From positions 91,289 to 155,288 of the forward strand of contig OZ241891.1 in assembly GCA_965203425.1 (NCBI GenBank): a stretch of DNA of 64,000 nucleotides, given 5' to 3'. Source of the stretch: Limisphaerales bacterium. Lineage in GTDB: Bacteria; Verrucomicrobiota; Verrucomicrobiia; Limisphaerales; AAA164-E04. Under the pieces are notes generated by a model. The model had not been told where the DNA came from, ran no database searches, and worked only from the letters and a program-made list of their open reading frames with translations. Positions 1,301-63,766 of the stretch are shown here, one piece after another (within the stretch, counting starts at the first letter, position 1; each line of letters starts with the position of its first letter). The translations under genes and the position numbers were made by a program.

Positions 1301-1552
1301 TCAGAAGGCTTGGCGTTTCTTTTGGAAATGTCGGAGAACGATTACAAAACCCAGCGCAAACAAACCAAAGACAAGAGCGTATTCTTGCGGTTCGGGAACC
1401 AAATCTGCAGGCGCGCTGGAAACTACCGCCCGCAAACCGCCCGAAGTCGGCGTCCCTTGAGTGTCGGCGGCCGCAAAATAAGGGCCGAAGATGTAGTTGT
1501 AAAAATACTCGCCGCCGGCTGTGACGGTGAATTCGTTAATGGGATAAGGCAA
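1301..1552 (-). CDS. Short ORF ending in a PEP-CTERM sorting signal; probably the 3' remnant of a larger secreted-protein gene
   Basis: The C-terminus VPEPQEYALVFGLFALGFVIVLRHFQKKR matches PEP + TM helix + basic tail. There is no signal peptide. The start is TTG, five codons after an in-frame TAG. Confidence 0.5.
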   Translation of the reverse strand: MPYPINEFTVTAGGEYFYNYIFGPYFAAADTQGTPTSGGLRAVVSSAPADLVPEPQEYALVFGLFALGFVIVLRHFQKKRQAF

Positions 1553-2932
1553 AGTGCCTTGCCTACTCTACGAGACGGCGTCGTTGATGGAATAGCTGAG
1601 CGAACTTGCCACAACTCGAATGCCCACCACGCGTCCACGCTTCCTAGTTTGATGACTTTGGTGGGCGTTGGGGTTTTCTTTTTGCGCTTCAAGACTAAGA
1701 GCATTTCGCCTTGATTGGTGTGGCCGGAGAAGAAGATTCGTTTTGGGTCGTAGGAAACGATGATGTACTGGATGTGGAAGTGTTTGGCCAGCCAGAGGCG
1801 AGTTTCTTTGCCCGGTAGCAGAGTAGCGGTGGATGCGGGCAGGACGAGTCCGGCTTTGCCGATGTTCGGGTCAATGTATTTGTGAACGAGTTCAATGAAG
1901 CCGTTGGTGTTGTGCGAACTGTTGAGTTTCAAATCTCGTTGAATGGATTTCTCTTTTGCGCAGTTTCTTTTCCACATCTATCTCATTTTCTTTTTTCTCA
2001 TCGGTTTTGTTGGGTTTGAATTGTTTAAACCGTTTGTATTCGATGGTGAACGGCGGGTTCATGATGGCGAAGTGGAAGGATGCGGGCATATGAATGGGTT
2101 CCGGTTGGCGCTCGAGGCCGTGGCCGGTGGAATGGTGGGAGAACAATTCGCCTTGGCCAAGTGGTTGGTAGAAGTACCAATCGTCTTTGTTGTCCAGCAA
2201 CATTTCCAATGAGCCGAGCCGGACTTCTTCTTTGCGTTCGGGGTGTTCGCCCAGTGGCATGGCGCGCAGTTGCGTATGCTTGAATTGGACGGAGGGCGCA
2301 ATCATGCCTAAGCCGGTTGCGGTTTGGAAGATGGCGCGGCGGTTGCAGTCGAAGCCGTAGAGCATTTTCTCGAACAAGGCGTTGGCCACTTCTTCGCGGT
2401 CTTTCTTCTTTACTTGGTCGAGGATGTAGTTGGCGCAGGCAATCAATAGCGTGCCGCTGCCGCAAGCGAAGTCGACGATGCGCAGGCTTTTGACTTTCTC
2501 CACGTCTTTCCAGTTGATGCGGGATTTATGGAACATCAGGCGGGTGAGCAGAGTAGCGGCCGGGAGAGTGGTATACATGGCGCCTTCGTGTTTGGCGGCT
2601 TCGATGGCGTTGCAGAAAGTAATGCCGACGACGTCTCTGGGCATTTCGCCTTTGGCCATTTGAATGGATTGGGCGGCTTGCGCGAGCAGTTTGACGACGT
2701 CGTTGCCGTGCTGTCCGATTTCGCCCCCGCAACTGGTCAATGCTTTGAGGATGGCGATGTTCCACGCGAGAATGTCTTTGTAATCTACCGTGAGCCATTT
2801 GTCGTAGGCGTCGATGAAGCAGGTGATGCGGTTGCCTGTGCCGTAGGGGAAGGGGACTTGAGGTGCCGCATCGATTCTCGCTTTTTGGAGGATGCGGGCG
2901 AGGTCCGCATTGAGTGAATGTTCGTCAGGCAT
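1423..2932 (-). pseudogene. N6-adenine DNA methyltransferase (gamma-class, N6_Mtase-like), frameshifted and probably 3'-truncated
   Basis: The ATG at 2932 (MPDEHS..) leads into motif I VDFACGSGTLL and motif IV MNPPF in ORF 1892..3190. The continuation (NTNGFIELVHKY, GKAGLVLPASTATLLPG, LLVLKRK) lies in another frame in ORF 1423..1977. The frames join at an A4 run on the coding strand (plus-strand T4 at 1954-1957). The last ~40 codons look out of frame and run into the PEP-CTERM remnant. Confidence 0.75.
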
Positions 2933-3065
2933 TTTTGTCTTTGGATTTATTGTCCCAATTTTCCTAGCGCAAGGAGGCAAGCTTACTCGATGGAAGGCAA
3001 AGCGCAAAATGGGAATCTGGAGGCTTGCCGTTTTTCCAGCGAAGGCGTAAAGTTTTGGGATTGTT

Positions 3066-4523
3066 ATGTTTTTCCAAAGAAAAGAACGTCGTTCGCCGTT
3101 TCGCTGGTTTGGTTTGCTTTGCGTTTTTCTAGCTTTTTGTTGGATCGCCGGCGCCGAGTCGAAGCGTTCGCCAAACATTGTCTTTATCATGGTGGATGAC
3201 TTGGGCTACGGTGATTTGGGTTGCTTTGGCGGGCAAGCGATTGAAACGCCGAACTTGGATCGCTTGGCGGCCAAGGGGATCGCCTTTTCCCAATGTTATT
3301 CCGGCTCCACGGTTTGCGCGCCCGCGCGGGCGACACTGATGACCGGCAAACACATGGGCAAGGTAGCGCTTCGCGGCAATACAGGCGGTATTCCTTTGCC
3401 GTCGGAAGAAACCACGATTCCCGAACTTTTGAAACAGGCCGGCTACGTTACCGGCGGCTTTGGCAAGTGGGGACTGGGCGACATCGGCACGGAGGGAGTG
3501 CCCGAAGCGCAGGGCTTTGACCTTTTCTACGGATATTATCACCAAATTCACGCCCATTATTTCTATCCCGATTATCTGGTGCGGAACAGCGAGAAAGTGA
3601 TGTTGCTTGGCAATGCGGGATTCTACGACGCAAAGCCGAAGGCGGGTTTTGTGGAGGCGGTTGATCCGGCAACGGGAAGGAATCGGCAGTTTGCCCACGA
3701 TCTTATTTTTGCCGAAACGCTGAACTTTATTCGCAAGCATCGGCAGTCTCCATTTTTTTGTTATGCGCCTTGGACGCCGCCGCACGGCCGCTACGAGTTT
3801 CCGGCGGACGATCCGGCGGCCTTGAAATACGCCGACCGGCCTTGGTCGATCAAAGCCAAAGTGATTGCCGCCATGGTCTCGCAAATCGACCGCCAAGTCG
3901 GCGAGTTGTTGAACTTGCTGGACGAACTGGGGATTGCTGAAAACACGATTGTCTTCTTCTGCTCGGATCACGGCGCGGCGGAACGGCTGGACGGCGAACT
4001 CAATTCCTGCGGCTCTCTCAAAGGCCGCAAGCGAAGCATGTATGAAGGCGGATTGAGAACGCCGATGCTCGTCCGCTGGCCGGGTAAAATCGCCGCCGGA
4101 CGCAAAAGCGACTTCGTCTGGTATTTTCCCGACGTTCTGCCGACTTTGCTGGATTTGGCAGGAATGGCCGGCGCAACGCCCGAAGGTTTGGACGGCGTTT
4201 CCATCCTGCCGACTTTGCTGGGACAAGGCTTGCAGCGGCAACATCCCGAACTTTACTGGGAGTGGCCGAAATACGACTGGAAAAACCGCCGATACACCAA
4301 TCTGATGCAAGCGATCCGAATGGGCGATATGAAACTCCTCCGCCACCAAAGAGGCCAACCTTGGGAACTCTACAACATCTCAACTGATCCCGGAGAAAAC
4401 GACAACTTGGCGGCAATCTACCCCGGCATCGTCGCCCGAATGAGCCTGCGCATGCAGGAAATCCGAACGCCGCATAAACCTCTCCCAGAGCCTGCTATGC
4501 CGCCGGGCCGCAGATACCGTTGA
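3066..4523 (+). CDS. Arylsulfatase A-family sulfatase, secreted
   Basis: Signal peptide present. PNIVFIMVDDLGYGDLGCFGG is followed by the formylglycine motif CAPARATLMTGK. The C-terminus is sulfatase-like (SDHG, EGGLRTP). Confidence 0.92.
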   Translation: MFFQRKERRSPFRWFGLLCVFLAFCWIAGAESKRSPNIVFIMVDDLGYGDLGCFGGQAIETPNLDRLAAKGIAFSQCYSGSTVCAPARATLMTGKHMGKVALRGNTGGIPLPSEETTIPELLKQAGYVTGGFGKWGLGDIGTEGVPEAQGFDLFYGYYHQIHAHYFYPDYLVRNSEKVMLLGNAGFYDAKPKAGFVEAVDPATGRNRQFAHDLIFAETLNFIRKHRQSPFFCYAPWTPPHGRYEFPADDPAALKYADRPWSIKAKVIAAMVSQIDRQVGELLNLLDELGIAENTIVFFCSDHGAAERLDGELNSCGSLKGRKRSMYEGGLRTPMLVRWPGKIAAGRKSDFVWYFPDVLPTLLDLAGMAGATPEGLDGVSILPTLLGQGLQRQHPELYWEWPKYDWKNRRYTNLMQAIRMGDMKLLRHQRGQPWELYNISTDPGENDNLAAIYPGIVARMSLRMQEIRTPHKPLPEPAMPPGRRYR

Positions 4524-4765
4524 CCGCACTTTGCCTTCGGCTCGCCGACAAAGCCAATCCGCCGGCAGAAACAAAATTCCGACGGGCGGAAAAAGAGACT
4601 GGACTTTTTAGACAATCGAAATATTCTGCCTTCGGCCTTGTAACGCAAATCACAGAATCAAATCCCCCGCCGACGCAAGCGAAGAGTTTGATGCGGAGAA
4701 TCGCAGTGGTGAAGGAATGGAAAGCCTCCATATTAGCCTGCTAACCATAGGACGGGCGAGGAGAG

Positions 4766-5053
4766 ATGGGCAAGAAGAATGACGAGAAGACGCTGCTCTG
4801 GCGGCTCTACGACAAGCATTATTGCAAGTATAGCCAGCGGGATCCAAACCAACCGGAGATGCAGTTTGCGCCGGCCAAACGAGACTTCGCCTTCGAACGC
4901 TGGATAGGGGATCATCCACAGTATGTGACTTACGTGCATCGGGGAGCGGGCAGCGGAGAGGGCAATTATGTCGACACGAATTTCCAGTTGCTCGTGGCGC
5001 ACGGGAACGTGGAGATGTGGGCAAAGAACTGCGTTTGTTGTGGGAAGAAATAG
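4766..5053 (+). CDS. Hypothetical protein (first of two overlapping ORFs)
   Basis: ORF only, with no recognisable motif. It overlaps the next ORF in a different frame around 5017-5053, so the two may be one gene split by a frameshift. Confidence 0.3.
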   Translation: MGKKNDEKTLLWRLYDKHYCKYSQRDPNQPEMQFAPAKRDFAFERWIGDHPQYVTYVHRGAGSGEGNYVDTNFQLLVAHGNVEMWAKNCVCCGKK

Positions 5054-5292
5054 ACGGGGACTTGGAAGACTATCCTTTGCGGCGCAAGGCTTTTTGGAAG
5101 GATTACACGAAGGAAGAATGGGAGCAACGCCTGCGCCAACTCCCCCGCGTCTATGGGGGATGCAGCTGGCAGAAGAATCACAAAGAACAATTGAAAAACA
5201 AGATAAAGCGGATGCGGGAATTAGAAGCAGAAATCCGCCGCAGGCAAGAGGCGGGAGAGAGCATTACCGAGGATGGCGAGCCGGGACCGTAG
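5017..5292 (+). CDS. Hypothetical charged coiled-coil-like protein (second overlapping ORF)
   Basis: ORF only, with a GTG start. The C-terminal half is K/E/R-rich (KEQLKNKIKRMRELEAEIRRRQEAGE). Confidence 0.3.
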   Translation: MGKELRLLWEEIDGDLEDYPLRRKAFWKDYTKEEWEQRLRQLPRVYGGCSWQKNHKEQLKNKIKRMRELEAEIRRRQEAGESITEDGEPGP

Positions 5293-5403
5293 AAAGAGTT
5301 CTGTGAACACGGCCCGATACTGGCTATTTCTCTGCCGCTTGGCTGCTTGTTTTATTACGGGATGTGGAAAATTGGGAAACATATTTGGCATGCTATTTTT
5401 AAC

Positions 5404-5431
5404 TTGACTTTTATTGGATTTTGTGTATAGT
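5404..5431 (+). promoter_or_regulatory. Sigma70-like promoter candidate upstream of the YceI-like gene
   Basis: TTGACT (5404-5409), a 16-nt spacer, then TATAGT (5426-5431), in an AT-rich intergenic stretch. A TTAATTAA palindrome follows. Confidence 0.3.
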
Positions 5432-5483
5432 TTGATTAATTAATAAACACAAAATAAGGAATGAAAAAGAATCCATTGCATTT

Positions 5484-6134
5484 ATGAAGTCCAAACAACG
5501 CAAACCGAATTCGCAAATTATGACGGGATTTTTCGCGCTGGCCGCTGTTGCTCTGGCCGGTTGCAGCGATCCCGCCGAAGGCGTGAAAGAAGCCGAAGTC
5601 GCGGCGCCCGCAGGCGAAAGCGCAGAAACAGAGGCGGTTGCCGGCGCCAAAACCTACACAATCCACCCGGACTCGAAGATAGACTTTACCGGATCCAAAA
5701 TCACCGCCAGCCACAGCGGCGGCTTCAAAACCTTCGCCGGCACAATTGCAGTCGCCGACGGAAACCTCGCGCCGCCCAGTCGCATTGAGATCGACATGAA
5801 CTCCACTTGGTCAGACAACGAGCGTTTGAGCCGGCACTTGAAAAACAAAGACTTCTTCGATGTTCCCACTTATCCCACCTCAACGTTCGTCCTCACTGCC
5901 TCAGAGCGATCCGGCGAAGAATACACAATCACCGGTGACCTTACCCTCCACGGCGTTACAAAAAGCATCCGCTTTCCCGCAAAAATCTCGATTACCGACG
6001 AGCAAGTAAGCCTGACGGCCGAATTTTCCATCATGCGCTTTGACTTTGACATCGTCTATAAAGGAAGAGCCGACGACTTGATCCGCGACAGAGTGGTCAT
6101 TCGACTGGACGTCAAAGCAATCGCCGACGCTTGA
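5484..6134 (+). CDS. YceI-like polyisoprenoid-binding lipoprotein
   Basis: Lipobox LAGCS. The YceI-domain pattern reads YTIHPDSKIDFTGSKITASHSGGFKTF ... ITGDLTLHGVTKSIRFPAKI. Confidence 0.85.
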   Translation: MKSKQRKPNSQIMTGFFALAAVALAGCSDPAEGVKEAEVAAPAGESAETEAVAGAKTYTIHPDSKIDFTGSKITASHSGGFKTFAGTIAVADGNLAPPSRIEIDMNSTWSDNERLSRHLKNKDFFDVPTYPTSTFVLTASERSGEEYTITGDLTLHGVTKSIRFPAKISITDEQVSLTAEFSIMRFDFDIVYKGRADDLIRDRVVIRLDVKAIADA

Positions 6135-6185
6135 TTCCCTAAACACAGTCAAAACCCAATTCTGCGTCGCGGCGACTCCCCGCTT

Positions 6186-9100
6186 GTGCCGGAGAAATTT
6201 CGGCGCGAGCCGATCCATTGCAGCCAAGCCGTGAACGAAAAACCCAGCAAACAGCGGCACATTCTGGACAATCAGACCGCTAAGGTTTTCCACTATCTGC
6301 AAGAAAACCTTGCCGACGCCGACTCCTTCCGCCTCGTCTCCGCCTACTTCAGCATTTACGGCTACGACTTGCTCGCCAAAGAACTGAACACCGTCCGCCA
6401 AGTTTGTTTTCTCTTCGGCGACCCCGCCTCGATAAAAGAACCTGATCCAGTCGCCAAAGAACCCAAATCCTTTGCCTTTACCGAGCGAGGACTTTCGCCG
6501 CACCGCACTTTGCAACAGAAGCAACTGGCCCGACAATGCGCCCAATGGATGCAAAAAGACGCCGTAAAAGTCCGCTCGATCAGGCATTCCAACTTTTTGC
6601 ACGGCAAAATGTACCTTGCCGAATCCGCCGGCAAAACCCCCAGTGCCGTCATCGGCAGCTCCAACTTTACCCGGCGCGGACTTGGCAGCAACGACGGCGC
6701 CAACCTCGAAATTAACATCGCGCTCTCCGACGGCCCACTCCTTGCCGAACTGCGCGCTTGGTTCGACAAACTCTGGAGCAACGACGACCTTACTTACGAC
6801 GCCAAACGAGAAGCTCTCAACGCCCTCAACCGCCTCGGCAAGGACTACGCTCCAGAGTTCATTTATTTCAAAACGCTCTACGAACTCTTCCGCAACGCTC
6901 TCAAAGACCAAGACGACTCCGATCGACACATCCGCGAAACACAACTCCAAGACACTGCCATTTGGAACGCTCCGCTCTTTGGATTCCAAAAGGATGGCGC
7001 GAAAAGCGTTATATCCAAGCTGAACCGACACAACGGCTGCATTCTCGCCGACAGCGTCGGACTCGGCAAAACCTACACCGCGCTGGCTGTCATCAAATAC
7101 TACGAACTCCGCAACGAGAACGTCCTTGTCCTCTGCCCTAAGAAACTCATGGGCAACTGGTCATTGTATCAGGCGGCGAACAACCATGTCCAGAACCCGT
7201 TTGCGGAAGACCGTTTCGGCTACACCCTGCTGGCACACACCGACCTGTCGCGCGAGCGGGGAATGTCCGGCGGGATAAACCTCGCTAATTTCAACTGGTC
7301 GGCGTTCGACATGGTCGTCATAGACGAATCGCACAACTTCCGCAACGATGGCGGCAAGCGCTACCGGAAGCTGCTTGACGACGTTATCAAGGGAGGCGCG
7401 CGGACGAAAGTCCTCATGCTGTCGGCGACGCCCGTCAACACAAGCCTAATCGACCTCCGCAACCAGATTTACCTGATGACGGAGAAGCGCGAGGACGCCT
7501 TCCGCGAGAGTTTGGGTGTGGGCGACATCCGCCAAATCATGAAAGACGCCCAGCGCGAGTTTCAGATTTGGGAAAGCGGGCTTTCGCGCGACAAGGCGGG
7601 GCTTATGAGCAGACTCGGTGCGGACTTCCTGCGCCTGCTCGACGGCGTCTCCATATCGCGCTCGCGGCGGCAGATAGAGCACTTTTACGCCGAAGACTTG
7701 AAGCGAGAGCGAGTGGGCAGCTTCCCGAAGCGCAAAGCCCCCCGTCAACCTCTACCCGCCCACCGATACGCTCGGCGAGCTTTCCTACGACGGGGTCGCC
7801 GCCGTCATAAACAGATTCGCCCTCTCCATATACCGTCCGTCCGACTATCTGCTCGCGGTCTCCAAGCCCCGCGAGAAACAGGTCGCCCGAAATCTGGTCG
7901 GGATGATTCGAACCAACTTCCTCAAACGGCTTGAAAGCTCGCCGCGCTCGCTCGCTCGCACCTTGCGCCGAGTCATCGGGAAAATGGATAAGCTGCTGGA
8001 AAAGATAAGACTGTATCGAGAAGGCTCTCCGATCGTCGCGCTCGCAAGCCCGGGCATGGGAATGTTTCCGGGAGAACTATTAGAGAGACGGTTGCCCGAC
8101 GACGCAACGGATGACGGCTACGCCACTTACGGCGATGACGAAGCCATCGAAGACGACGAAGATTTCGTCAAAGACAGCCACGACCGCCGCTACAGACTCT
8201 CCGAGATGGACTTGAGCCGCTGGCAGGCGGACATGGAAACCGACCGCGCCATGCTGGCGGACGTCCTGAAAGATGTGGATAAAGTCACGCCGGAGCGCGA
8301 CGGCAAGCTGCGGAAAATCAAAGAAATCATCCGCGAAAAGGCGACGAACCTGACAATCGACCGCGACGGCAACGCAAACCGCAAGACGCTGGTGTTCACC
8401 ACTTTCAAGGACACGGCGCGGTATTTGTACGAGAATTTGACCGATCTCGCCCGCGAACTGAATATCAAAATCGCAATGGTCTCGGGCGACGAAACGCACA
8501 CCTCGGTTGGCGACAACAATTTCAACGCCATCCTCACTAACTTTGCCCCTGTCGCGCGCAACCGCAGGGCCGTGGACGCCGCCGCGGACATTGACCTGCT
8601 AATCGCCACCGACTGCATATCCGAAGGGCAGAACCTGCAGGATTGCGATAGGGTGATCAACTACGACATCCATTGGAACCCCATCAGGATAATCCAGCGT
8701 TTCGGGCGCATAGACCGCATCGGCAGCCAAAGCAAAACCGTCCGCATGGTCAACTGCTGGCCGACGGAGGATATGGACGCCTATCTGCGTCTCGAGAACC
8801 GCGTTCGGACGCGGATGGCGCTCGCGGACGCCGCCGCCACCGGCGACGCCAACCCGCTCGACGAGGACGCCGCTCGCCGTGAAATCAAGTTCCGCGACGA
8901 CCAGCTCTTGCGCCTGCGCGAAGAAGCTGTCGCGCTGGAAGACGTCCCCACTCTGGGCGACTTCACAATGGACTACTTCCTCGCTCAACTCCGCCAATAC
9001 TTGGAGAAAAACAAAGCCGAACTCGAAGCCGCCCCCATCGGCGCCTATGCCATAACACCCTCAAAACCCGCAAACGGCGACGACTCCGGCGTAATCTTTC

Positions 9101-9514
9101 TCTTGCGCCAAACCAACACCTAAGCCCTCAATCCCTGCCAGCGCACCGCAAGCCCCGTTCATCCCTTTTCCCTTGTCTACATTAAAAACGACGGAACCAT
9201 CCGTTACGGCTGCGCCAGCATCCGCCAAGCCCTCGAATTCTTTGAAAAGATCGCCGCCGGCCAAACAGAACCCATCATGCGCCTCTGCGACTGGTTCGAC
9301 CGCGAAACCGCGCAAGGCAGGCAAATGCAACGCTATGACGAGCTGCTCAAAAAAAGTCGCCGCCCACATCCGGCAAGCGCACAACGACGCCCAATTCTCC
9401 GCCCTTAAATCCGGCGGCGGCCGCGAATTCATTCTTCCAAAAATCTCTGAATCGCCCAACAATGCAAACAATCTTGAATTAATCACATGGCTGATTATCG
9501 CTGGGAAAATCTAG
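6186..9514 (+). pseudogene. PLD(HKD)-nuclease domain fused to an SNF2-family helicase; broken by two frameshifts and one nonsense codon
   Basis: HKD motif HGKMYLAES..GSSNFTRRG. SNF2 motifs are ILADSVGLGKTYTA, VVIDESHNFRN, MLSATPVNT, LIATDCISEGQNLQ and HWNPIRIIQRFGRIDRIG. Reading frame 0 changes to frame 1 at a C6 run (7738-7743). An in-frame TAA sits at 9121-9123 with a conserved-looking continuation (HPFSLVYIKNDGTIRYG). Frame 1 changes to frame 2 at an A7 run (9349-9355). The ORF ends LELITWLIIAGKI at 9514. Confidence 0.85.
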
Positions 9515-9798
9515 AGCTCGTTGGTCGCATCGAAGTGGCTCTTGCTAGAATCAAAGGGGTTAACTTTTCTGTGGGGGTGCGGAGGCTTCTGGGGGTTATG
9601 GGGTATGAGAGCGAGCGGGTTTGGGAAGGGAGGAGCGGGGGTTTTGAGAGGGGGATTGCTTGGCTTGGGAAGCCGGAGACTTCTGGGGAGCGAGAGTTAT
9701 TGAGGCATGCTAGCTTTGTTGGTTTGGTTTTCCAATTTGCTGAGGAAGAGATGCGGGGGGGGGGGGGGGGAGCGTCTTTCCGAGGAGAGCCTTCATAG
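9487..9798 (+). other. N-terminal segment of the downstream methyltransferase, cut off by the poly-G tract
   Basis: ATG at 9487 (MADYRWENLELVG...). The frame reads through the G tract as GGGGG and stops 8 codons later. Removing one G fuses it in frame to ORF 9707..12562. Confidence 0.7.
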
Positions 9799-12562
9799 AA
9801 GTTTTCTTTTCTTGGCTGTGGCGCTCAAAAAGGCTTCTTATTCGCGTCGTCAATACGCCTTGTTCGTCCGCGTCCTTAACAGACGCTTTGGCATCCCCGC
9901 CGTCGTTCTCTTCCTTGACCAAGACGAACTCTTCACGCTGGCCTTTGTTTATCGCCGTCCCAATAAGCGCGAGCCTAAGCGCGATGTGCTTGGAAGAGTG
10001 TTTTTGATAAGAGAAATTAATCCGCGCAATCCTCACCGCGCTCCCTTGGACATTCTCGCCTCTCTTTCGTTGGACGCCCGCCTCCGCTGGATGAGCGACA
10101 ACCGCAAGCCCCGCAACTTTGACGGACTCCTTGACGCATGGCTGGCCGCGCTGGACGCTCAGGAACTCAACAAGCGCTTCTATCGCGAACTCCTTGCTTG
10201 GTTCGAGCGCGCCTGCGAGCAAGCCAGATTCCCAAAGGTCGGCGCCAGAACCTTCCGTCCGCAAGAGCATGTCATCCGGCTCATCACCCGCTTGCTCTTC
10301 ATCTGGTTCCTCAAGGAGAAGAGCCTTGTTGCTTCCGAACTCTTCGTCGAGCAGCAAGTCGCCTCGCTCCTCAAAGACTACGACCGCGACTCCGGCGACT
10401 CCTACTATCGCGCCATTCTCCAAAACCTCTTCTTCGCAAACCTCAACACTGAAATCGACAGACGCGGTTTCAGCAAGGGGAGCAACGCCACGCACCGCGA
10501 TTTCTCTCGCTATCGCTACGAGAAGGAGATCGCTACCCCCGCCCAGTTGCTCGCCCTGTTCGCGCAAACGCCGTTCATCAATGGCGGCCTGTTTGACCGC
10601 TACAAGTTCACCATCGAGGAAAACACGCCCGTCGAACAGGACGTCGCCCTAGATCCCAAACTGCTCGGCAAGGTGTTCGAGAATCTCCTCGCCGCGTACA
10701 ACCCCGAAACCCGCGACACCGCCCGCAAGCAGACCGGCTCTTATTACACCCCGCGCCCTGTGGTGGATTACATGGTGGATGAGGCATTGGTGGCAACACT
10801 GGCGCAAGCGTGTTCGCCAAGCGATGCCGACACAGGGTTTTGGCAAGATCGGTTGCGCTATTTGCTGGACTACGAGGATGCGTTCAACGACGCCCATGAA
10901 CTGTTTGAAGAGGATGAAACAGCGGGCATTGTGCGGGCGATTTCCGAGATCAAAGTGCTCGATCCGGCGGTCGGTTCCGGCGCCTTTCCTATGGCCATCC
11001 TCCACAAACTCATCTTAGCCTTGCGCCGCCTCGACCCTCACAACCACCGCTGGCAACATCTCCAACAAGAACGCGCCCGCGCCAAAGCAGACGCGGCGTT
11101 TGACACGAAAGACCCACGAGAACGCAAAGCCGAACTCAATGAGATCAGCGACACCTTCGAGCAGTATTCGGGCGACTTTGGACGCAAGCTGTATCTCATT
11201 CAAAACAGCATTTTCGGCGTGGATATTCAGCCCATCGCCACGCAGATCGCCAAGCTGCGCTTCTTCATCTCCCCCGCCATCGAACAACAACCCAACCCCA
11301 ACCCCCAAGACAACTTCGGCATCCAGCCCTTGCCCAACCTAGAAACCCGCTTTATCGCCGCCGATACACTCCTCCCGCTCCACAGCAAGATAGATCAACT
11401 TCCTACCAACGACATCCATGACCTCCGCAGAGAACTCGCATCCAACCGCGAACAACATTTCCACGCCGCCAATCCTCACAAGAAGCTGGAATATCGAACC
11501 AAAGACAAAGAACTCCGAGAAAAACTGGCCGCCGCCCTCCGCGCCGCCGACTTTTCCTCTGAGGCCGCCCGCAAAATCGCCCACTGGAATCCCTACGACC
11601 AAAACGCCCAAGCCCCCTGGTTCAACCCCCATTACATGTTCGGCATCCCCCAAGGCTTCCACATCCTCATCAGCAACCCCCCTTACATCCCACTCCAAAA
11701 AAACCAAGGCCAACTCGCCCAACTCTACCAAAGCGCCAACTACCAAACCTTCGCCCGAACCGGCGACCTCTACCAACTCTTCTACGAACGCGCCTGCCAA
11801 CTGCTTCTGCCAAAGCGCGGCCTGCTCGCTTATATCACCTCCAACAGTTGGCTGAAGGCGCAATACGGCAAATCCACGCGCCGCTATTTCGCCGAGCAAC
11901 ACACGCCCCTGCAACTGGTGGAAATGGGCAAAGATGTTTTTGAAAACGCCAGCGTTGACACCAACATTCTGATAGCGCGTCGCGGCAAAAGCGATGCGAT
12001 CTGCAAGGCGGTGGACATGGATCGCCTGCCCGATAAAGACTTCCCGCCCAACGAAAAACATTGGTCGCCTTTTACTCCGCAACTCGCAAAACGCCAAGAC
12101 CAAGGCCAAACTCCCTACAACCTCCGCCCCTGCGCCTACCACCAAGACTTTGAAAAAGAAAAGCTAGTGTGGACGGATATATCAAGAGAAGGTCGTTTTT
12201 CCTACGATGACGGAGGAATATACTGCGAAGCCACTGCATTTATGATGACTGGGAACAGCATCAAATACCTATGCGCTTTGCTTAACGCAAAACTAACTCA
12301 CTGGTTTCTTCGGCAAAATTCGCCGCAACTGGGTACGGAGGCATTGCGCTGGAAAAAGGTTTATGTAGAAAACATCCCCATCCCCAAAATCTCCGCCGCC
12401 GAACAACTCCCCTTCCTCCGCCTAGTCGATTGCATCCTGGCCTCCAAAGCCTCTAACCCCGCCGCCGACACCGACAAGTTAGAAAAAGAAATCAACCACC
12501 TCGTCTATTCCCTTTACGGTTTAACGGCAGATGAAATCGTAGCAGTGGAAAATCGAACTTGA
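9707..12562 (+). CDS. Eco57I/PglX/DrmMI-type N6-adenine DNA methyltransferase with a TaqI-like C-terminal specificity domain (longest ORF in the current G16 state)
   Basis: GSYYTPRPVVDYMVDEAL, motif I VLDPAVGSGAFPMAILHKL, motif IV ILISNPPYIPLQ. The C-terminal TRD-like region reads KLVWTDISREGRFSYDD..LNAKLTHWFL..VENIPIP..LYGLTADEI. Confidence 0.88.
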   Translation: MLALLVWFSNLLRKRCGGGGGERLSEESLHRSFLFLAVALKKASYSRRQYALFVRVLNRRFGIPAVVLFLDQDELFTLAFVYRRPNKREPKRDVLGRVFLIREINPRNPHRAPLDILASLSLDARLRWMSDNRKPRNFDGLLDAWLAALDAQELNKRFYRELLAWFERACEQARFPKVGARTFRPQEHVIRLITRLLFIWFLKEKSLVASELFVEQQVASLLKDYDRDSGDSYYRAILQNLFFANLNTEIDRRGFSKGSNATHRDFSRYRYEKEIATPAQLLALFAQTPFINGGLFDRYKFTIEENTPVEQDVALDPKLLGKVFENLLAAYNPETRDTARKQTGSYYTPRPVVDYMVDEALVATLAQACSPSDADTGFWQDRLRYLLDYEDAFNDAHELFEEDETAGIVRAISEIKVLDPAVGSGAFPMAILHKLILALRRLDPHNHRWQHLQQERARAKADAAFDTKDPRERKAELNEISDTFEQYSGDFGRKLYLIQNSIFGVDIQPIATQIAKLRFFISPAIEQQPNPNPQDNFGIQPLPNLETRFIAADTLLPLHSKIDQLPTNDIHDLRRELASNREQHFHAANPHKKLEYRTKDKELREKLAAALRAADFSSEAARKIAHWNPYDQNAQAPWFNPHYMFGIPQGFHILISNPPYIPLQKNQGQLAQLYQSANYQTFARTGDLYQLFYERACQLLLPKRGLLAYITSNSWLKAQYGKSTRRYFAEQHTPLQLVEMGKDVFENASVDTNILIARRGKSDAICKAVDMDRLPDKDFPPNEKHWSPFTPQLAKRQDQGQTPYNLRPCAYHQDFEKEKLVWTDISREGRFSYDDGGIYCEATAFMMTGNSIKYLCALLNAKLTHWFLRQNSPQLGTEALRWKKVYVENIPIPKISAAEQLPFLRLVDCILASKASNPAADTDKLEKEINHLVYSLYGLTADEIVAVENRT
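9755..9770. repeat. Homopolymeric G16 tract inside a methyltransferase coding region (candidate contingency/phase-variation tract)
   Basis: Direct count gives 16 consecutive G at 9755-9770. It is the longest homopolymer I noticed in the window. Confidence 0.95.
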
Positions 12563-12610
12563 CGGCTTTGGCTGGTCTGTTTTACGGTTTTCTCAAAAAG
12601 AAAATTGAGA

Positions 12611-13474
12611 ATGAACGAAATCGACAGAACGAAGGAAACTTTGCCCAATTTCGGCGGATATTGGACGCGTAAAAAATTGGATATACTTGAACGATATCTT
12701 GATGCTTACACCACCGCATTGAAACGCAAGTCTTTCAGTTTGATGTACATAGACGCGTTTGCCGGCACAGGAGACATCGGACGACGTCAGCAAGAAGATG
12801 AAGATGCAAAGATGCTCATTGAGGGTTCCGCGAGCAGAGCATTAAAAATTGACGACAAACTTTTTGATCGGTTGATCTTTGTTGAAAAAGACCGTGATCG
12901 ATACTGTCAACTAAGAAATCTATGTCAGAAAAATTCGGGCAGAGACATTCGAATTGAAAATGCCGATGCAAACTCTTTTCTGGCCAATAAATTGCAGGAA
13001 GATTGGAAGAAGTGGCGCGGCGTTCTTTTTTTGGATCCGTTTGCAACCGAAGTCGAGTGGAAAACCGTTCGACATATAGCGAGATTTAAGTTGGACGTCT
13101 GGATTCTTTTTCCAACTTCTGCAGTGATTCGTATGTTGCCTAAATCAAGAAAACCAGATCAAAAACTGGCTGGGACTTTGACTCATGTTTTTGGCGACGA
13201 GAGCTGGCGATGTCTCTATTCCGTCAATCCGCAACAGTCTTTGTTTGGCGACAAAATGCATCAAAGAGATAGAGGCAGTTTTGACATCATCAAACTATAC
13301 AAGGACAAATTGCACGAACTGTTCGGCAATAGATTTATGGAAAAATCTAAGACGCTCAAAAACTCTAAAAACGCTCCTCTCTTTGAGTTTATGTTTTGCG
13401 TTGGCAGCTCGAGTCCAAAAGCAATAGATCTTGCCAAAGGAATAGCTAAACATATCATAAACATGGTCGATTGA
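12611..13474 (+). CDS. TcmP-like (three-Cys-motif partner) protein, predicted methyltransferase fold
   Basis: GGYWTRKKLDILERYLDAYTTAL, a motif-I-like YIDAFAGTGD and a motif-IV-like LFLDPFATE. It lies directly upstream of a DUF5131 gene with a 3-nt gap, which is the known TcmP pairing. It is visibly more AT-rich than its neighbours. Confidence 0.6.
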   Translation: MNEIDRTKETLPNFGGYWTRKKLDILERYLDAYTTALKRKSFSLMYIDAFAGTGDIGRRQQEDEDAKMLIEGSASRALKIDDKLFDRLIFVEKDRDRYCQLRNLCQKNSGRDIRIENADANSFLANKLQEDWKKWRGVLFLDPFATEVEWKTVRHIARFKLDVWILFPTSAVIRMLPKSRKPDQKLAGTLTHVFGDESWRCLYSVNPQQSLFGDKMHQRDRGSFDIIKLYKDKLHELFGNRFMEKSKTLKNSKNAPLFEFMFCVGSSSPKAIDLAKGIAKHIINMVD

Positions 13475-13477
13475 TGC

Positions 13478-14185
13478 ATGGCTTTACAAACGCAGATTGA
13501 ATGGACTGGAGTGACTTGGAATCCGGTGACGGGTTGTTCGAAGGTGAGCGAGGGGTGTCGGCATTGTTATGCGCATCGGCTGGCGTTGCGGCTTCGGGCG
13601 ATGGGCAATCGGCGATATGCCAATGGGTTTCGGGTAACTTTGCACAAGGATTTAGTGGATGCGCCGTTTCGATGGCGTTCGCCTCGCGTGGTGTTTGTGA
13701 ACTCGATGAGTGATTTGTTTCATCACAAAGTGCCGGTTTATTTTCTTCGGCAAGTGTTTGAGACGATGAACAAATGCCGGCAACACACTTTCCAAATACT
13801 CACGAAGCGAAGCGAGCGGCTGCGACGGTTGGCCGGCAAGTTGGAGTGGACGAAAAATATCTGGATGGGAGTTAGCATTGAAAACGAGAGCGTATATCAT
13901 CGCATTGAGGATTTGCGACAAGTTCGATCCCATGTGCGTTTTTTGTCGTGCGAGCCTTTGATTGGCCCGATAGAGGAGTTGCCTCTGGACGGCGTTCATT
14001 GGGTGATTGTCGGCGGCGAATCAGGACCGGGGGCTAGGCCAATGAAAACCGAGTGGGTGCGCTCGATTCTGGAGCAGTGCAGGAAGTCTGGGGTGCCGTT
14101 CTTTTTTAAACAATGGGGCGGGGTTTGCAAGCGTCAAAACGGCCGCATGTTGGACAATCGCACTTACGATGAAATGCCGGTGTAA
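13478..14185 (+). CDS. DUF5131 / phage Gp37-Gp68 family protein (three-Cys motif)
   Basis: The N-terminus TQIEWTGVTWNPVTGCSKVSEGCRHCYAHRLA is the family hallmark. Later comes HWVIVGGESGPGARPM..PFFFKQWGG. Confidence 0.85.
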   Translation: MALQTQIEWTGVTWNPVTGCSKVSEGCRHCYAHRLALRLRAMGNRRYANGFRVTLHKDLVDAPFRWRSPRVVFVNSMSDLFHHKVPVYFLRQVFETMNKCRQHTFQILTKRSERLRRLAGKLEWTKNIWMGVSIENESVYHRIEDLRQVRSHVRFLSCEPLIGPIEELPLDGVHWVIVGGESGPGARPMKTEWVRSILEQCRKSGVPFFFKQWGGVCKRQNGRMLDNRTYDEMPV

Positions 14186-14269: not shown

Positions 14270-15232
14270 CTAGAGGAGTTGTTGGAGCCAGTGTTGGATT
14301 TTTTGGGAGACTTCGACGGCGGAGTTGTTGAGGAGGCAGTGGGGTTTGGAAAAGCGGCAGTAGTCAAAGCAGGGTTTGTGGGGGCAGGGTTTGCCTTCGA
14401 TGTAGGCGGCTTGGGGATGGTTGGGGAGGAACCATTGAGGGCGTTGGGGTCCGAAGATGGTGAAGGTGGGGATGCCTAGGGCGGCGGCGAGATGACCGGG
14501 GCCAGAGTCGTTGCCGATGAAGGCAGTTGCGTTTTTCAAATGGCGGATGAGTTCGGCGAGGTTTGCGGGGCAATGGGCAAGGTGGCCGATGGATTTCCAT
14601 TCTTGTTTTTGGTTGGGGTCGCAGAGGATTTGGGTTGACCAGCCTGCGCGTTGGAGGCTATCGGCGAGTTGGGCGTAGCGGGGGATTGGCCAGACGCGGA
14701 CTGCTTGGGCGGCGCCGGAGTGAATGAGGGCAAGGCGTTGGGAAGATTGGCCGAGTGGGGAATGCGAAGGACAGTGGATGGAAAGTCCGAGGGCGTGGCC
14801 GAGGATTTTCCATTGGGCGGCGCGGGATGCGTCGGGATGGATTTTGGGGAGTGGTTCGGTGAGAAGGAGTTGGCTGCCTAAGCGGGGAAAGCCGATGCGG
14901 CGGGGCGCGCCGGAAAGCCGAAGGATGAGGTGATCGCGGGGATCGCGACGGGCGGAGGCGGCGATGTGCGGTTTTTGTTGGCGGATTTGCCGCAAGATTG
15001 TTTGGAGTGTTTGCCAAGGCCAGTGGTGAAGTTGGTATTTGCCGGTGAATTGTGTCCAAGGGGCGATGAAGGGAAGGACGGTGATTTGGGGCCAAAGTTC
15101 TTTGGCGAGTTCGGCGGCGTGGGGTTTGGCGAGCAGGATGACGCGAAAACGGCGGCTGGCAGTTTGGAGGAAGGCGGAGCCGATGGCCAGATCGCCGATG
15201 CCCCAAAATTCGGTGATGAGCAGGGTTTTCAC
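14270..15232 (-). CDS. Glycosyltransferase family 9 (LPS heptosyltransferase-like)
   Basis: MKTLLITEFWGIGDLAIG and FIGNDSGPGHLAAALGIPTFTIFGP. A 4-nt overlap links it to the upstream gene. Confidence 0.85.
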   Translation of the reverse strand: MKTLLITEFWGIGDLAIGSAFLQTASRRFRVILLAKPHAAELAKELWPQITVLPFIAPWTQFTGKYQLHHWPWQTLQTILRQIRQQKPHIAASARRDPRDHLILRLSGAPRRIGFPRLGSQLLLTEPLPKIHPDASRAAQWKILGHALGLSIHCPSHSPLGQSSQRLALIHSGAAQAVRVWPIPRYAQLADSLQRAGWSTQILCDPNQKQEWKSIGHLAHCPANLAELIRHLKNATAFIGNDSGPGHLAAALGIPTFTIFGPQRPQWFLPNHPQAAYIEGKPCPHKPCFDYCRFSKPHCLLNNSAVEVSQKIQHWLQQLL

Positions 15233-15888
15233 GGGGCGGGTTTTTGGGCGATTAGATAGGCGGACCAGCCGATCCAGTGGATTTTGGCGGTGAATTTTTG
15301 GCGGCTGGCGGGCAGGAAGCGATAGAAGAGATGAGCGAGGGCAAAGAGCCAGTTTCTGGAGGTGCCGGAGCGGAGGATTTTGAGGCGGTTTTTTCGAGCG
15401 AGTTGCGCGAGGGCACCTGTGCTGACGAGTTTGGTGTGGGTCAAGTCATCAAAGAAGTTTAGGGTAAAGGCGCCGGCGCTGAGGTCAGCAAGGCTGGGAA
15501 GGGTGAGTGTTTTGGGATGGGGCGTTTCGAAGTAGACTTTTCCGCCGGGTTTGAGGAGGCGGGCGATTTCGGAGATCAGGATTGTCAGGTTGTCTAGATG
15601 TTCGACCAAGTGCATGCAGGTGATGGCGTCCATGGATTGGTTTTGCCAAGGGAGGGTTTCGGTGTTGAGGTTGGCTTGGCGGTATTGGCATCCAGGCGGG
15701 TAGTGGTTTGGTTGGCCGGCGATGTCGGCGGCGTTGAAGTGGAGGTCGGGGCGTAGTTCGTAGAAGTGGCGGAGGGTTTCGCCATCGGAAGAGCCGAGGT
15801 CTAAAATATGGCCTTTTTGGGGCGTTGCGGCTAAAAAGCGCGAACGGGTATCCAGCCAAGGAAAGACGCGGAGAAGTTTCCAGTTCAT
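15229..15888 (-). CDS. Class I SAM-dependent methyltransferase
   Basis: ILDLGSSDGETL (motif I), MDAITCMHLVEHL, LLKPGGKVYFETP. The 4-nt overlaps on both sides indicate an operon. Confidence 0.8.
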   Translation of the reverse strand: MNWKLLRVFPWLDTRSRFLAATPQKGHILDLGSSDGETLRHFYELRPDLHFNAADIAGQPNHYPPGCQYRQANLNTETLPWQNQSMDAITCMHLVEHLDNLTILISEIARLLKPGGKVYFETPHPKTLTLPSLADLSAGAFTLNFFDDLTHTKLVSTGALAQLARKNRLKILRSGTSRNWLFALAHLFYRFLPASRQKFTAKIHWIGWSAYLIAQKPAP

Positions 15889-17102
15889 GCGCTGTCGGGT
15901 TTTTGATGTTTGTTTTGGGTGGAGAAAGCGCTTGAGGAAGAATCGGAGCGGCTTTCCGGGCGTTTTTGAGAGGGCAAAGACAGCTCTCGATAGACTTTTT
16001 GGTAGGCTTGAAAAACCTGCGAGGCGCAGCGATGCCGAACGGAGTCGCGAATATTTGCGGGCGGTTGGAATTCATCTGGCGCAAGAATCGATTTTTCGAG
16101 GCATTGTTTTAGGGATTGGGGGTCGTTCGGCTGAAAGAGCAGTCCGCAACCCTGTTTTACGATGTCTGGGCAGCCGCCGCTGTTGGAAACAATGGCGGGC
16201 AGTCCCAGCGCTAAGGCTTCCATCAAGGCGACCGAACAAGGTTCGTTGGAGGAAGGGAGCGCGAACAAGTCGCTTTGCAGGAGTTCGGCGGCGACGTCGG
16301 CGGACGGACCGCAAAGGCGCAATTGGGATTCTAGTCTGCATTGGCGAATCTTCTGGCGAAGTTTGGCAGCGAAGGCGCGGGATTCTGGGAGTTGGAGCGT
16401 TGGCCCCCAGATGTTGCATTGGATTTTCTTTTGCAAGGATTGGGGCAACAGATGGATGGCTTCGGCCAAGATGTCCCATTTTTTCCAGCCGATGAGGCTA
16501 CCAACTCCGATAATTCGGATGGAGCGGTTTTGGGAGCAAAGACCGGGTCGTTCGGCCAAGGGAAGTTGCAAGAATTGGTCTCCATAACAGGCGGAGATGG
16601 TGCGAATTCGACCGTTTTGGTTTTGGGCGTTGAGTCCGTAGTGTTTTGCCATGTTGGGGGTGAGGATTGTTGTGTGCAGTCGTTTGCGCTTGGCGGCCCA
16701 GCGGTACAGGCCGGTTTGGCGGGCGTAGTTGTGGTTGGTAAAAAGCGCCGGCCGCTTTGTCCATTGGGAAAAGAGCATGGCGACCGGCAAGGCGCCTCTG
16801 GAGTGGGCGTGAACCACGTCGTAATGTTCGGCGCCAAGCAGTGCCAGCAGTTCGCGGGTTGCGGGGATTGCTTGCCAAAGCAGGCGAAGGCGGTTTTTGG
16901 ATTCTGCCTGCGCGGCGCGGCTATAGCGGTATTCGAGCGCGGGTTGGCGGGTTTCTTTGTAGGCTTGGTTAACCCATACGGCGTGCTTCCAGCCGTCTGC
17001 GGCGCTGGCGTTTTGCAAGTTGCGGATGACGGAAAGGACGCCGCCGGCATCTTCTCGCTCGCCCGTCAAGTGCAGAATCTTCAAGGGATGTTTGTTCGCC
17101 AT
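15885..17102 (-). CDS. Glycosyltransferase family 4/1 (GT-B)
   Basis: Start chosen at MANKHPLKILHLTGE (ATG at 17102). It has a typical GT4 N-terminus, and the C-terminus reads FALPSSNEPCSVALMEALALGLPAIVSNSGG. The longer ORF back to 17426 is R/L-rich and unlikely to be translated. Confidence 0.85.
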   Translation of the reverse strand: MANKHPLKILHLTGEREDAGGVLSVIRNLQNASAADGWKHAVWVNQAYKETRQPALEYRYSRAAQAESKNRLRLLWQAIPATRELLALLGAEHYDVVHAHSRGALPVAMLFSQWTKRPALFTNHNYARQTGLYRWAAKRKRLHTTILTPNMAKHYGLNAQNQNGRIRTISACYGDQFLQLPLAERPGLCSQNRSIRIIGVGSLIGWKKWDILAEAIHLLPQSLQKKIQCNIWGPTLQLPESRAFAAKLRQKIRQCRLESQLRLCGPSADVAAELLQSDLFALPSSNEPCSVALMEALALGLPAIVSNSGGCPDIVKQGCGLLFQPNDPQSLKQCLEKSILAPDEFQPPANIRDSVRHRCASQVFQAYQKVYRELSLPSQKRPESRSDSSSSAFSTQNKHQKPDSA

Positions 17103-17264
17103 AAGCGGCTTAGTTTTTCCGCAACCTTTTGCAAAACATAGTAAACCGCTGACTTCGTTTTCGGCAAGCTGCTCCTTTAGCCGAAGTTTTTTTCGTTGGC
17201 AAAACTTGTTGCCGCCGATAGAAAAGGAGGAGGCAATTTCAAATCTAATTTTATCGACGAACCG

Positions 17265-17465
17265 ATGGCCACTTATACTTACGAAACCATCCCGCAAAAA
17301 AAAGGGCAAAAGCCCCGGCGTTTTGAAGTGCAGCAGAAGATGACGGATCCGCCATTGAAGAAGCATCCGAAAACCGGCCAGCCGGTCAAGCGCGTGATCA
17401 CCGGGGGGAGCGGTTGGGTGACGCACGGCCCCAGCATCATGTCAATGAACACCAAGAAAAGCTAG
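17265..17465 (+). CDS. FmdB-family-like small protein lacking the zinc-ribbon cysteines
   Basis: MATYTYETIP...RFEVQQKMTDPPLKKHPKTGQPVKRVITGG follows the FmdB pattern (M-x-T-Y-x-Y ... FE..Q.M.D.PL..CP.CG..V.R.I), but both CxxC pairs are replaced. Confidence 0.5.
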   Translation: MATYTYETIPQKKGQKPRRFEVQQKMTDPPLKKHPKTGQPVKRVITGGSGWVTHGPSIMSMNTKKS

Positions 17466-59788: not shown

Positions 59789-59864
<76 letters not shown>

Positions 59865-63669: not shown

Positions 63670-63766
63670 GGAGAGTCAAGAGTGGCTGGTGTCCTCCGCG
63701 GTCTTCAAAACCGTTGTCGGTCTGTTCCGCAGGCCGAGGTGGGTTCGATTCCCACCCTCTCCGCCA
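63670..63766 (+). tRNA. tRNA-Sec(UCA)?: 97-nt class-II-like tRNA with a UCA anticodon (tRNA-Sec candidate or opal-decoding tRNA), CCA encoded
   Basis: Hand fold: anticodon arm GCGGT-CTTCAAA-ACCGT, an 8-bp variable arm TCGGTCTG/CAGGCCGA, T arm G(G)TGGG-TTCGATT-CCCAC(C), acceptor GGAGAG/CTCTCC + G + CCA. I could not fold the D arm into the canonical 6-bp bacterial Sec stem. Confidence 0.6.

Follow-up and report, generated by a model that had tools for sequence, protein, structure and literature searches.

A decayed HKD-SNF2/methylase gene pair beside an intact TcmP/DUF5131 cassette in a Limisphaerales genome

Introduction

The Type-2 BREX-related (bacteriophage exclusion-related) system comprises a DUF499 ATPase, an N6-methyltransferase, an HKD-Swi2/Snf2 helicase and a DUF3780 protein, and it has been proposed to act in a restriction-modification (RM)-like manner (PMC12839542). 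It is related to Hma (PMC11232893). Here we describe a locus that encodes an HKD-SNF2 nuclease-helicase and a DNA adenine methylase, followed on the same strand by genes for TcmP, a three-Cys-motif partner protein, and for DUF5131. The locus lies in a 64,000-nucleotide stretch of a Limisphaerales bacterium (assembly GCA_965203425.1, contig OZ241891.1, positions 91,289 to 155,288 of the forward strand), which we call the window; all positions given without a locus name are those of the window. The original prediction had taken the four genes for a single composite defence block and had proposed a PADLOC search and neighbourhood statistics as checks.

TcmP and DUF5131 correspond to PDC-M41. The PDC systems are candidates obtained by “guilt-by-embedding”, and PDC-M41 is one of 145 such candidates derived from genes embedded in BREX, DISARM (defence island system associated with restriction-modification) or type I RM loci (bioRxiv 10.1101/2024.01.29.577857). 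At RadicalSAM.org, DUF5131 is a subgroup of the radical SAM superfamily (PMC9477430).

Results

Two gene pairs with separate distributions

Co-directional coding sequence spans 6186-14185 on the + strand (open reading frame (ORF) listing and translation) and holds the following features, of which the first two are called module 1 and the last two module 2:

6186-9514, + strand: HKD (PLD)-SNF2 nuclease-helicase gene, disrupted, a pseudogene (Pfam, PADLOC, homologue alignment)
9487-12562, + strand: gamma-class N6-adenine DNA methyltransferase with a TaqI-like target recognition domain (TRD), frame broken, two internal deletions (Pfam, PADLOC, alignment)
12611-13474, + strand: TcmP, intact, PADLOC PDC-M41A (TIGR04474, PADLOC)
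13478-14185, + strand: DUF5131 (Gp37/Gp68 family), intact, PADLOC PDC-M41B (PF07505, PADLOC)

The layout was as originally predicted, with all genes on one strand, a 28-nt overlap at the SNF2/methylase junction (9487-9514), a gap of 48 nt between methylase and TcmP (12563-12610, given a TcmP start at ATG 12611) and a gap of 3 nt between TcmP and DUF5131 (13475-13477). The domain calls were right as well. In Pfam, the HKD-SNF2 protein has PLDc_2 (residues 109-197) and, downstream of it, the SNF2/Helicase_C part (SNF2-rel_dom, ResIII, Helicase_C), and the methylase has Eco57I (1e-30), TaqI_C and N6_Mtase. TcmP matches TIGR04474 (9.9e-48, 163 bits against a cut-off of 53), and DUF5131 matches PF07505 over its full length (1.9e-98). 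The proposed PADLOC search returned PDLC01075 “HKD+Snf2” as top match of the HKD-SNF2 gene (2.8e-58 and 1.8e-41 for its two pieces), REase_MTase_IIG as top model of the methylase (8e-111), PDC-M41A for TcmP (2.2e-73) and PDC-M41B for DUF5131 (6.4e-117). The count of four genes held for TcmP and DUF5131, which are intact, and failed for the SNF2 gene and the methylase, which are split into three and two ORFs, respectively.

The HKD-SNF2 family has more than 8000 homologues at E ≤ 1e-20. When species-representative genomes were scanned with the SNF2 alignment, at least 579 loci emerged, and neighbourhoods were taken from the best 80. A methylase homologue lies downstream of the HKD-SNF2 gene in 77 of these 80 loci; the gap is at most 150 nt in 43 loci, 150-1000 nt in 17, and exceeds 1 kb, with inserted genes, in another 17. 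The SNF2 ORF is at least 1000 residues long in 77/77 paired loci. Clustering of the flanking ORFs in the 80 loci returned two conserved families, SNF2 and methylase, and the next cluster was present in 11 loci. About 12 other ORFs of at least 1000 residues occur in these loci, and the nine that were scanned are unrelated (DUF4175, ABC transporter, TonB receptor, Cas9 and others). HKD-SNF2 and methylase form a real, conserved unit of two, mostly with genes that overlap or lie almost end to end, and there is no third conserved gene; L006 and L040 are examples with an intact pair. As originally predicted, this HKD-SNF2/gamma-class methylase arrangement resembles DISARM DrmD-DrmMI and a split type ISP enzyme.

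The best 80 loci belong almost all to metagenome-assembled genomes (MAGs) whose names point to marine sponge microbiomes; judged from the taxon names alone, they appear to originate from sponges. They include 21 Candidatus Poribacteria, many Dehalococcoidia, Caldilineaceae and Latescibacterota, and also Binatia, Ca. Spongiisociaceae, Synechococcus, Pedosphaera and others. In a Synechococcus MAG (L033), a Cas9-like protein (RuvC_III, HNH_4, Cas9_a; 6404-9646 of that locus, - strand) is encoded just upstream of the HKD-SNF2/methylase pair, which fits a defence-island setting. Four loci (L030, L041, L043, L051) carry, between the SNF2 gene and the full methylase, a sequence resembling methylase residues ~14-257, that is, the N-terminal domain, and in L034 a 267-residue ORF occupies the same interval (13257-14060 of that locus).

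TcmP has 1392 homologues. In 84 TcmP neighbourhoods, 80 from metagenomes and 4 from phages or plasmids, DUF5131 adjoins TcmP 72 times, and the exceptions are mostly contig ends. On Acetobacter and Leisingera plasmids, the cassette occurs by itself. The earlier description of TcmP/DUF5131 as a separate module was correct.

What did not survive is the single composite block. TcmP/DUF5131 was found within 10 kb of 0/80 HKD-SNF2/methylase loci; conversely, the methylase was found in 0/84 TcmP loci and HKD-SNF2 likewise in 0/84, bar one weak match to an unrelated helicase. By the neighbourhood statistics that had been proposed as a check, the four-gene adjacency is refuted as a system. The order methylase, TcmP, DUF5131, lipopolysaccharide (LPS) genes recurs only in two related lineages with ~86% nucleotide identity, and recurrence in such close relatives points to shared ancestry, not to functional coupling. 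GC content over the TcmP gene falls to a trough of 0.42-0.47 compared with 0.54-0.59 in module 1, which fits a separate origin. We consider it likely that the locus consists of two unrelated two-gene modules lying side by side, a decayed RM-like pair and an intact, autonomous cassette.

It appears highly improbable to us that all four genes form one co-transcribed composite defence system in which TcmP/DUF5131 serves as a second modification or sensing step. Such a system would agree with the common strand and tight spacing, with the lack of a convincing terminator between the genes (promoter and terminator scans of the locus stayed at background level) and with the methylase-TcmP-DUF5131 order kept in the two related lineages; moreover, PDC-type cassettes are typically embedded in or beside modification-based systems. 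It conflicts with the absence of co-occurrence seen from both sides, with the conservation of each pair by itself and with the sharp GC difference between the pairs. In addition, TcmP/DUF5131 is intact here and the other two genes are broken, so the four are not maintained as a unit.

Decay of the HKD-SNF2 gene and the methylase

The HKD-SNF2 gene is distributed over three ORFs in three frames (6186-7934, 7903-9123 and 9173-9514). Joined conceptually, the frames give a protein of 1108 residues, which was used as search query and returned hundreds of intact proteins (~1050-1130 residues) with a query coverage of 95-99% and an identity of 56-64%. Compared with the aligned intact homologues (1074-1121 residues), the repaired protein is 60-64% identical over 97-99% of its length and preserves their invariant columns. 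An alignment with intact homologues (1071-1133 residues) placed three lesions:

7738-7743, + strand: first SNF2 frameshift (+1, frame 0 to frame 1) in a C6 run (homologue alignment)
9121-9123, + strand: premature in-frame TAA in the SNF2 gene; homologues extend ~130 residues further
9349-9355, + strand: second SNF2 frameshift (frame 1 to frame 2) in an A7 run (homologue alignment)

At the C6 run, FPKRKAP is continued in frame 1 by VNLYPPTD, where homologues read uninterrupted as FPEREKPVNLHPPTD. Beyond the TAA, which lies outside any homopolymer, the conserved block ASPVHPF..VY stays in the same frame. At the A7 run, YDELLKK followed by VAAHIRQ fits the homologues' Y..LL.A..AHIRQ only once the frame changes. 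The catalytic HxK...GSSN and the helicase motifs are kept, which argues that the damage to the SNF2 gene is recent.

The methylase (9487-12562) consists of two overlapping ORFs, 9487-9798 and 9707-12562, and is broken by a run of 16 G at 9755-9770. Homologues of 1090-1302 residues align from residue 1-15 of the upstream ORF; the true start is therefore ATG 9487 and the G16 tract lies inside the coding sequence. The full-length frame of 1024 residues requires a tract length divisible by 3, and G15 or G18 would restore it. Two deletions were located in alignment A2. The first comprises 46 residues (columns 396-441) between FINGGLFD and RYKFT, ahead of the catalytic domain, and the second removes ~130 residues of the TRD core (columns ~943-1073). 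Each deleted segment contains positions that do not vary across 38 homologues. FxGxG and NPPY have been kept. An AlphaFold model of the full-length methylase was poor (predicted local distance difference test (pLDDT) 57), and the PDB fold search made with it was uninformative.

A relative of the organism (L167) carries a different, larger deletion in its methylase, by which the catalytic motifs are removed. Over the last 161 codons, the C-terminus of the methylase shows a ratio of nonsynonymous to synonymous substitution rates (dN/dS) of 0.32 against this relative, with 0.33 for TcmP and 0.30 for the GT4 gene (a glycosyltransferase gene). Module 1 is a relic in this genome. It was probably functional in the common ancestor and is being lost independently; its decay is recent and lineage-specific.

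Weighing the decay

Only one further assembly of the organism was found (ERZ26167651). Its contig_8 is 100% identical over 1903-10213 of the window, including all lesions situated there, and terminates within the methylase. The assembly may share source reads with ours, so it lends weak independent support to the lesions. Exact-sequence look-ups with DUF5131, with TcmP read from a TTG start and with the 951-residue methylase ORF, made for assemblies with other G lengths, had no entry on record. That second assembly and four contigs of related organisms (L167-L170) all end inside or just after the methylase gene (window 10213-12413), a pattern suggesting that this gene has repeated paralogues or differs between strains.

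Three observations speak against a simple picture of decay. The two assemblies differ by one 1-nt indel in 10.7 kb, located in DUF5131, so that some frameshifts may be errors and the single-base frameshifts in homopolymers are not certain; two of the three SNF2 lesions fall in short homopolymers; and the 951-residue methylase ORF is open with a C-terminus under purifying selection, so that residual function is possible. An alternative is a module 1 that is intact in the living organism, a working RM-like system; the frameshifts and the length of G16 would then stem from homopolymer errors of long reads. In its favour, homopolymers (C6, A7 and G16) hold three of the four frame breaks, the assemblies show the 1-nt indel in DUF5131, and the sequence is otherwise well conserved. 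However, the TAA at 9121 is a substitution, and the deletions of 46 and ~130 residues take out invariant positions of the methylase; neither the TAA nor the deletions are of the homopolymer-error kind. The lesions are also identical in the second assembly, and instead of frameshifts scattered over other ORFs of the window a single other disrupted gene was found (1423-3190, - strand). An intact module 1 is very unlikely in our view.

Many type III mod genes become phase-variable orphan or regulatory genes once res is inactivated. By analogy, the methylase might have outlived its nuclease partner in a phasevarion-like role, as an orphan or regulatory methyltransferase subject to phase variation. 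The nuclease-helicase is dead and yet the 951-residue ORF remains open with FxGxG and NPPY intact; the dN/dS of 0.32 and the position of the G16 tract in the 5' coding region point in the same direction. There is also precedent, since phase-variable methyltransferases whose restriction partner is inactive are firmly established for host-adapted bacteria (for example PMC6902483 and PMC4209511). On the other hand, the loss of the TRD core and of the 46-residue segment with its invariant residues should abolish sequence recognition, the deletion of the catalytic motifs in the relative indicates decay and not retention, and the dN/dS value is based on 161 codons only. We therefore regard an orphan methylase as unlikely and retain the interpretation of module 1 as a decaying pair.

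A poly-G tract in the methylase

The tract that breaks the methylase frame is the following feature:

9755-9770, + strand: G16 homopolymer in the methylase coding sequence, at about codon 90, candidate slipped-strand ON/OFF switch (homopolymer scan)

No other homopolymer in the 64-kb window exceeds 8, and no other site has at least 12 G; for runs of at least 12 G a shuffle gave an expectation of 0.02. Its length is the same in both assemblies of the organism, which are consensus sequences. Among 78 homologous methylase genes, two have long G tracts at the same position in unrelated flanking sequence, namely L034 (Ca. Spongiisociaceae, OZ251578) with G12 and L035 (Thermodesulfobacteriota, OZ220467) with G10 and a second G10 further into the gene. 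Both loci have an intact SNF2 gene, and their methylase frame breaks exactly at the G tracts. A further methylase (L080) has C8 at a frame change. In a structural model of the N-terminal domain (mean pLDDT 82.9), the tract falls in a low-pLDDT loop between two strands; judged from this model, a variable run of Gly could be tolerated there.

The independent recurrence of poly-G in one disordered loop of the methylase in distant homologues suggests phase-variable switching. The methylase also has what is expected in the first place of a contingency gene, a long tract in the coding region that sets the reading frame. Most likely, the tract is a slipped-strand contingency switch of the specificity and modification subunit, which would switch restriction together with modification. 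If the tract is real, the nuclease would need the methylase for targeting, similar to type III or ISP enzymes, because switching of the methylase would otherwise be unsafe. A literature search on phase variation in sponge symbionts returned nothing specific.

Long G/C runs were also seen in the flanks of homologous loci, namely L002 17292-17307 (G16), L014 22097-22119 (C23), L025 18189-18205 (C17), L022 9363-9375 (G13) and L007 16884-16895 (C12). By a rough base-composition estimate, runs of at least 16 are expected <0.01 times in 1.8 Mb, and there may be further contingency tracts in these defence neighbourhoods. In 13 of the 80 loci (L004, L009, L014, L019, L031, L036, L037, L041, L043, L048, L049, L053 and L060), an inverted copy of the C-terminal TRD of the methylase lies on the opposite strand, mostly just after the methylase gene. 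This layout is similar to the TRD-shuffling (inversion) switches of type I and IIG systems.

The TcmP/DUF5131 cassette

Both window proteins match the PDC-M41 models over their full length and their genes are adjacent, so the cassette belongs to PDC-M41. The order in the window is TcmP followed by DUF5131, and it is reversed in two of the plasmid examples examined. A PDB sequence search found no solved structures for TcmP and DUF5131. A Pfam scan of 25 TcmP homologues gave sub-threshold methyltransferase-like hints only (Cons_hypoth95 and Methyltransf_4, E ~0.07), and a profile-profile comparison of TcmP with the methylase family gave nothing. The literature search on PDC-M41 found nothing specific. 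We presume a role in defence or an action on nucleic acid, since pairs of this kind occur in or beside DNA-modification defence systems.

Neighbouring genes in the window

The flanks agree with those originally described. Upstream lie a sulfatase gene (3066-4523) and a YceI gene (5484-6134); downstream, the minus strand carries GT9, methyltransferase and GT4 genes (14270-17426), with a GT9 heptosyltransferase at 14270-15232. Long ORFs fill the remainder of the window densely, and no repeats marking island boundaries were found. The other disrupted gene is an N6-methylase (1423-3190, - strand). It is split between an ORF at 1892-3190, which holds the FACGSG and NPPF motifs, and an overlapping one at 1423-1977; its frame changes within an A-rich stretch.

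At 22057-23580 (- strand) lies a further RM-type gene, whose product of 507 residues joins an N6_N4 DNA methylase (2.5e-43) with an Mrr_cat restriction endonuclease domain. At 33885-38852 (+ strand), a DEAD/Helicase_C/MZB (DUF1998) protein of 1655 residues matches PADLOC DruE (DruE3) at 1e-168 compared with DrmA at 2e-10. It is preceded, with a 13-nt overlap, by a 692-residue ORF without family match (31819-38852 for both, + strand), and the two may form a Druantia type III-like pair. Towards its end the window holds two tRNAs, one for selenocysteine (59.8 bits) at 63670-63762 (+ strand) and an ordinary one at 59789-59861 (+ strand).

Discussion

Our analysis indicates that the locus is to be annotated as an RM-like pair of pseudogenes beside an intact PDC-M41 cassette and not as a new four-gene system. 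The disruption of both module 1 genes, the G16 tract and the PDC-M41 identity go beyond the original prediction. The decay in this genome together with independent deletions in relatives represents turnover of defence genes within a symbiont lineage.

From domain content and knowledge of related families, a mode of action can be proposed for intact members of module 1. The methylase would recognise a DNA sequence by its TaqI-like TRD and would methylate adenine by means of its NPPY motif, thereby marking self DNA. It would further direct its partner to DNA that lacks the modification. This DNA would be cut in an ATP-dependent manner by the partner, a Swi2/Snf2 translocase that carries a single-HKD (PLD-type) nuclease at its N-terminus. 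Slippage of the poly-G tract in the methylase loop would turn modification and restriction on and off together.

We speculate that the pair is a distinct minimal two-gene RM type that has spread horizontally over at least 10 phyla of apparent marine-sponge symbionts and has repeatedly acquired poly-G contingency tracts in one disordered loop of the N-terminal domain of the methylase; we put this forward tentatively, as a possibility and not as the expected outcome. If true, this would be a first indication of phase-variable defence in sponge microbiomes, and the window would show a lineage with the switch OFF and the system in decay. Several points limit our reading of module 1 as a switched RM-like pair. 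The candidate switch was seen in consensus assemblies only. All four poly-G tracts were observed out of frame, which is also expected if homopolymer lengths are miscalled in long reads. The model of the N-terminal domain of the methylase gave no PDB fold match at E ≤ 0.001, with scattered weak nuclease-like matches.

The HKD-SNF2/methylase family is a widespread, little-studied, two-gene, RM-like family. Having two genes of the BREX-related/DISARM toolkit, it offers a simple model for the coupling of an SNF2-HKD effector to a methylase. The recurrent poly-G tract is the feature most worth attention, and its recurrence at one loop suggests that uncultured symbionts share the contingency-locus strategy of host-adapted pathogens. 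Repeat-tract phase variation is classically found in type III mod genes, whose res partners have often decayed.

Compared with class 1 DISARM, module 1 shares an SNF2 helicase beside an Eco57I-type adenine methylase and the function of a PLD nuclease. In module 1 the PLD domain is fused to SNF2, while DISARM has a separate DrmC. The PADLOC matches to DISARM models are weak, with 7.9e-26 for DrmD and 5e-13 for DrmMI, the latter in comparison to 8e-111 for type IIG. Assignment to class 1 DISARM was rejected, as neither the locus nor the 80 homologous loci contain the core components DrmA (helicase) and DrmB (DUF1998) and the scores stay far below threshold (NCBIfam DISARM_DrmD 112.9 bits compared with 610, DrmD_b 66 compared with 950). 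The DUF1998/MZB protein at 33885-38852 lies 20 kb away and is DruE.

The type ISP enzymes (LlaGI/LlaBIII) and type III enzymes follow a similar logic, in which the methylase and TRD give specificity and an SF2 motor-nuclease gives ATP-dependent cleavage. However, type ISP enzymes are single polypeptides, whereas module 1 consists of two genes in 77/77 loci and is not of the ISP type. Type ISP and type III enzymes use an Mrr or PD-(D/E)XK nuclease, while the nuclease of module 1 is HKD/PLD and its motor Swi2/Snf2. Type III enzymes have a beta-class Mod, in contrast to the gamma-class methylase with TaqI-like TRD of module 1. A type IIG enzyme would have an endonuclease domain in the methylase polypeptide. 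REase_MTase_IIG is the best PADLOC model of the methylase, PDB sequence matches were confined to its methylase/TRD part, and its N-terminal domain gave the scattered weak nuclease-like matches noted above.

The closest described system is the Type-2 BREX-related system. It shares with module 1 an effector composed of an N-terminal HKD endoDNase and Swi2/Snf2, encoded beside an N6-adenine methyltransferase, an arrangement found in 77/80 loci of the family. Its defining DUF499 ATPase is neither conserved beside the module 1 family nor present among the scanned ORFs of the window. The same applies to DUF3780, for which no specific search was made. The window methylase favours type IIG models of PADLOC over PglX or HmaB. 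Since effector and methylase are present without the ATPase, module 1 is by definition not a Type-2 BREX-related system. Module 1 is rather a two-gene, RM-like relative of the Type-2 BREX-related and class 1 DISARM systems that lacks their other core genes.

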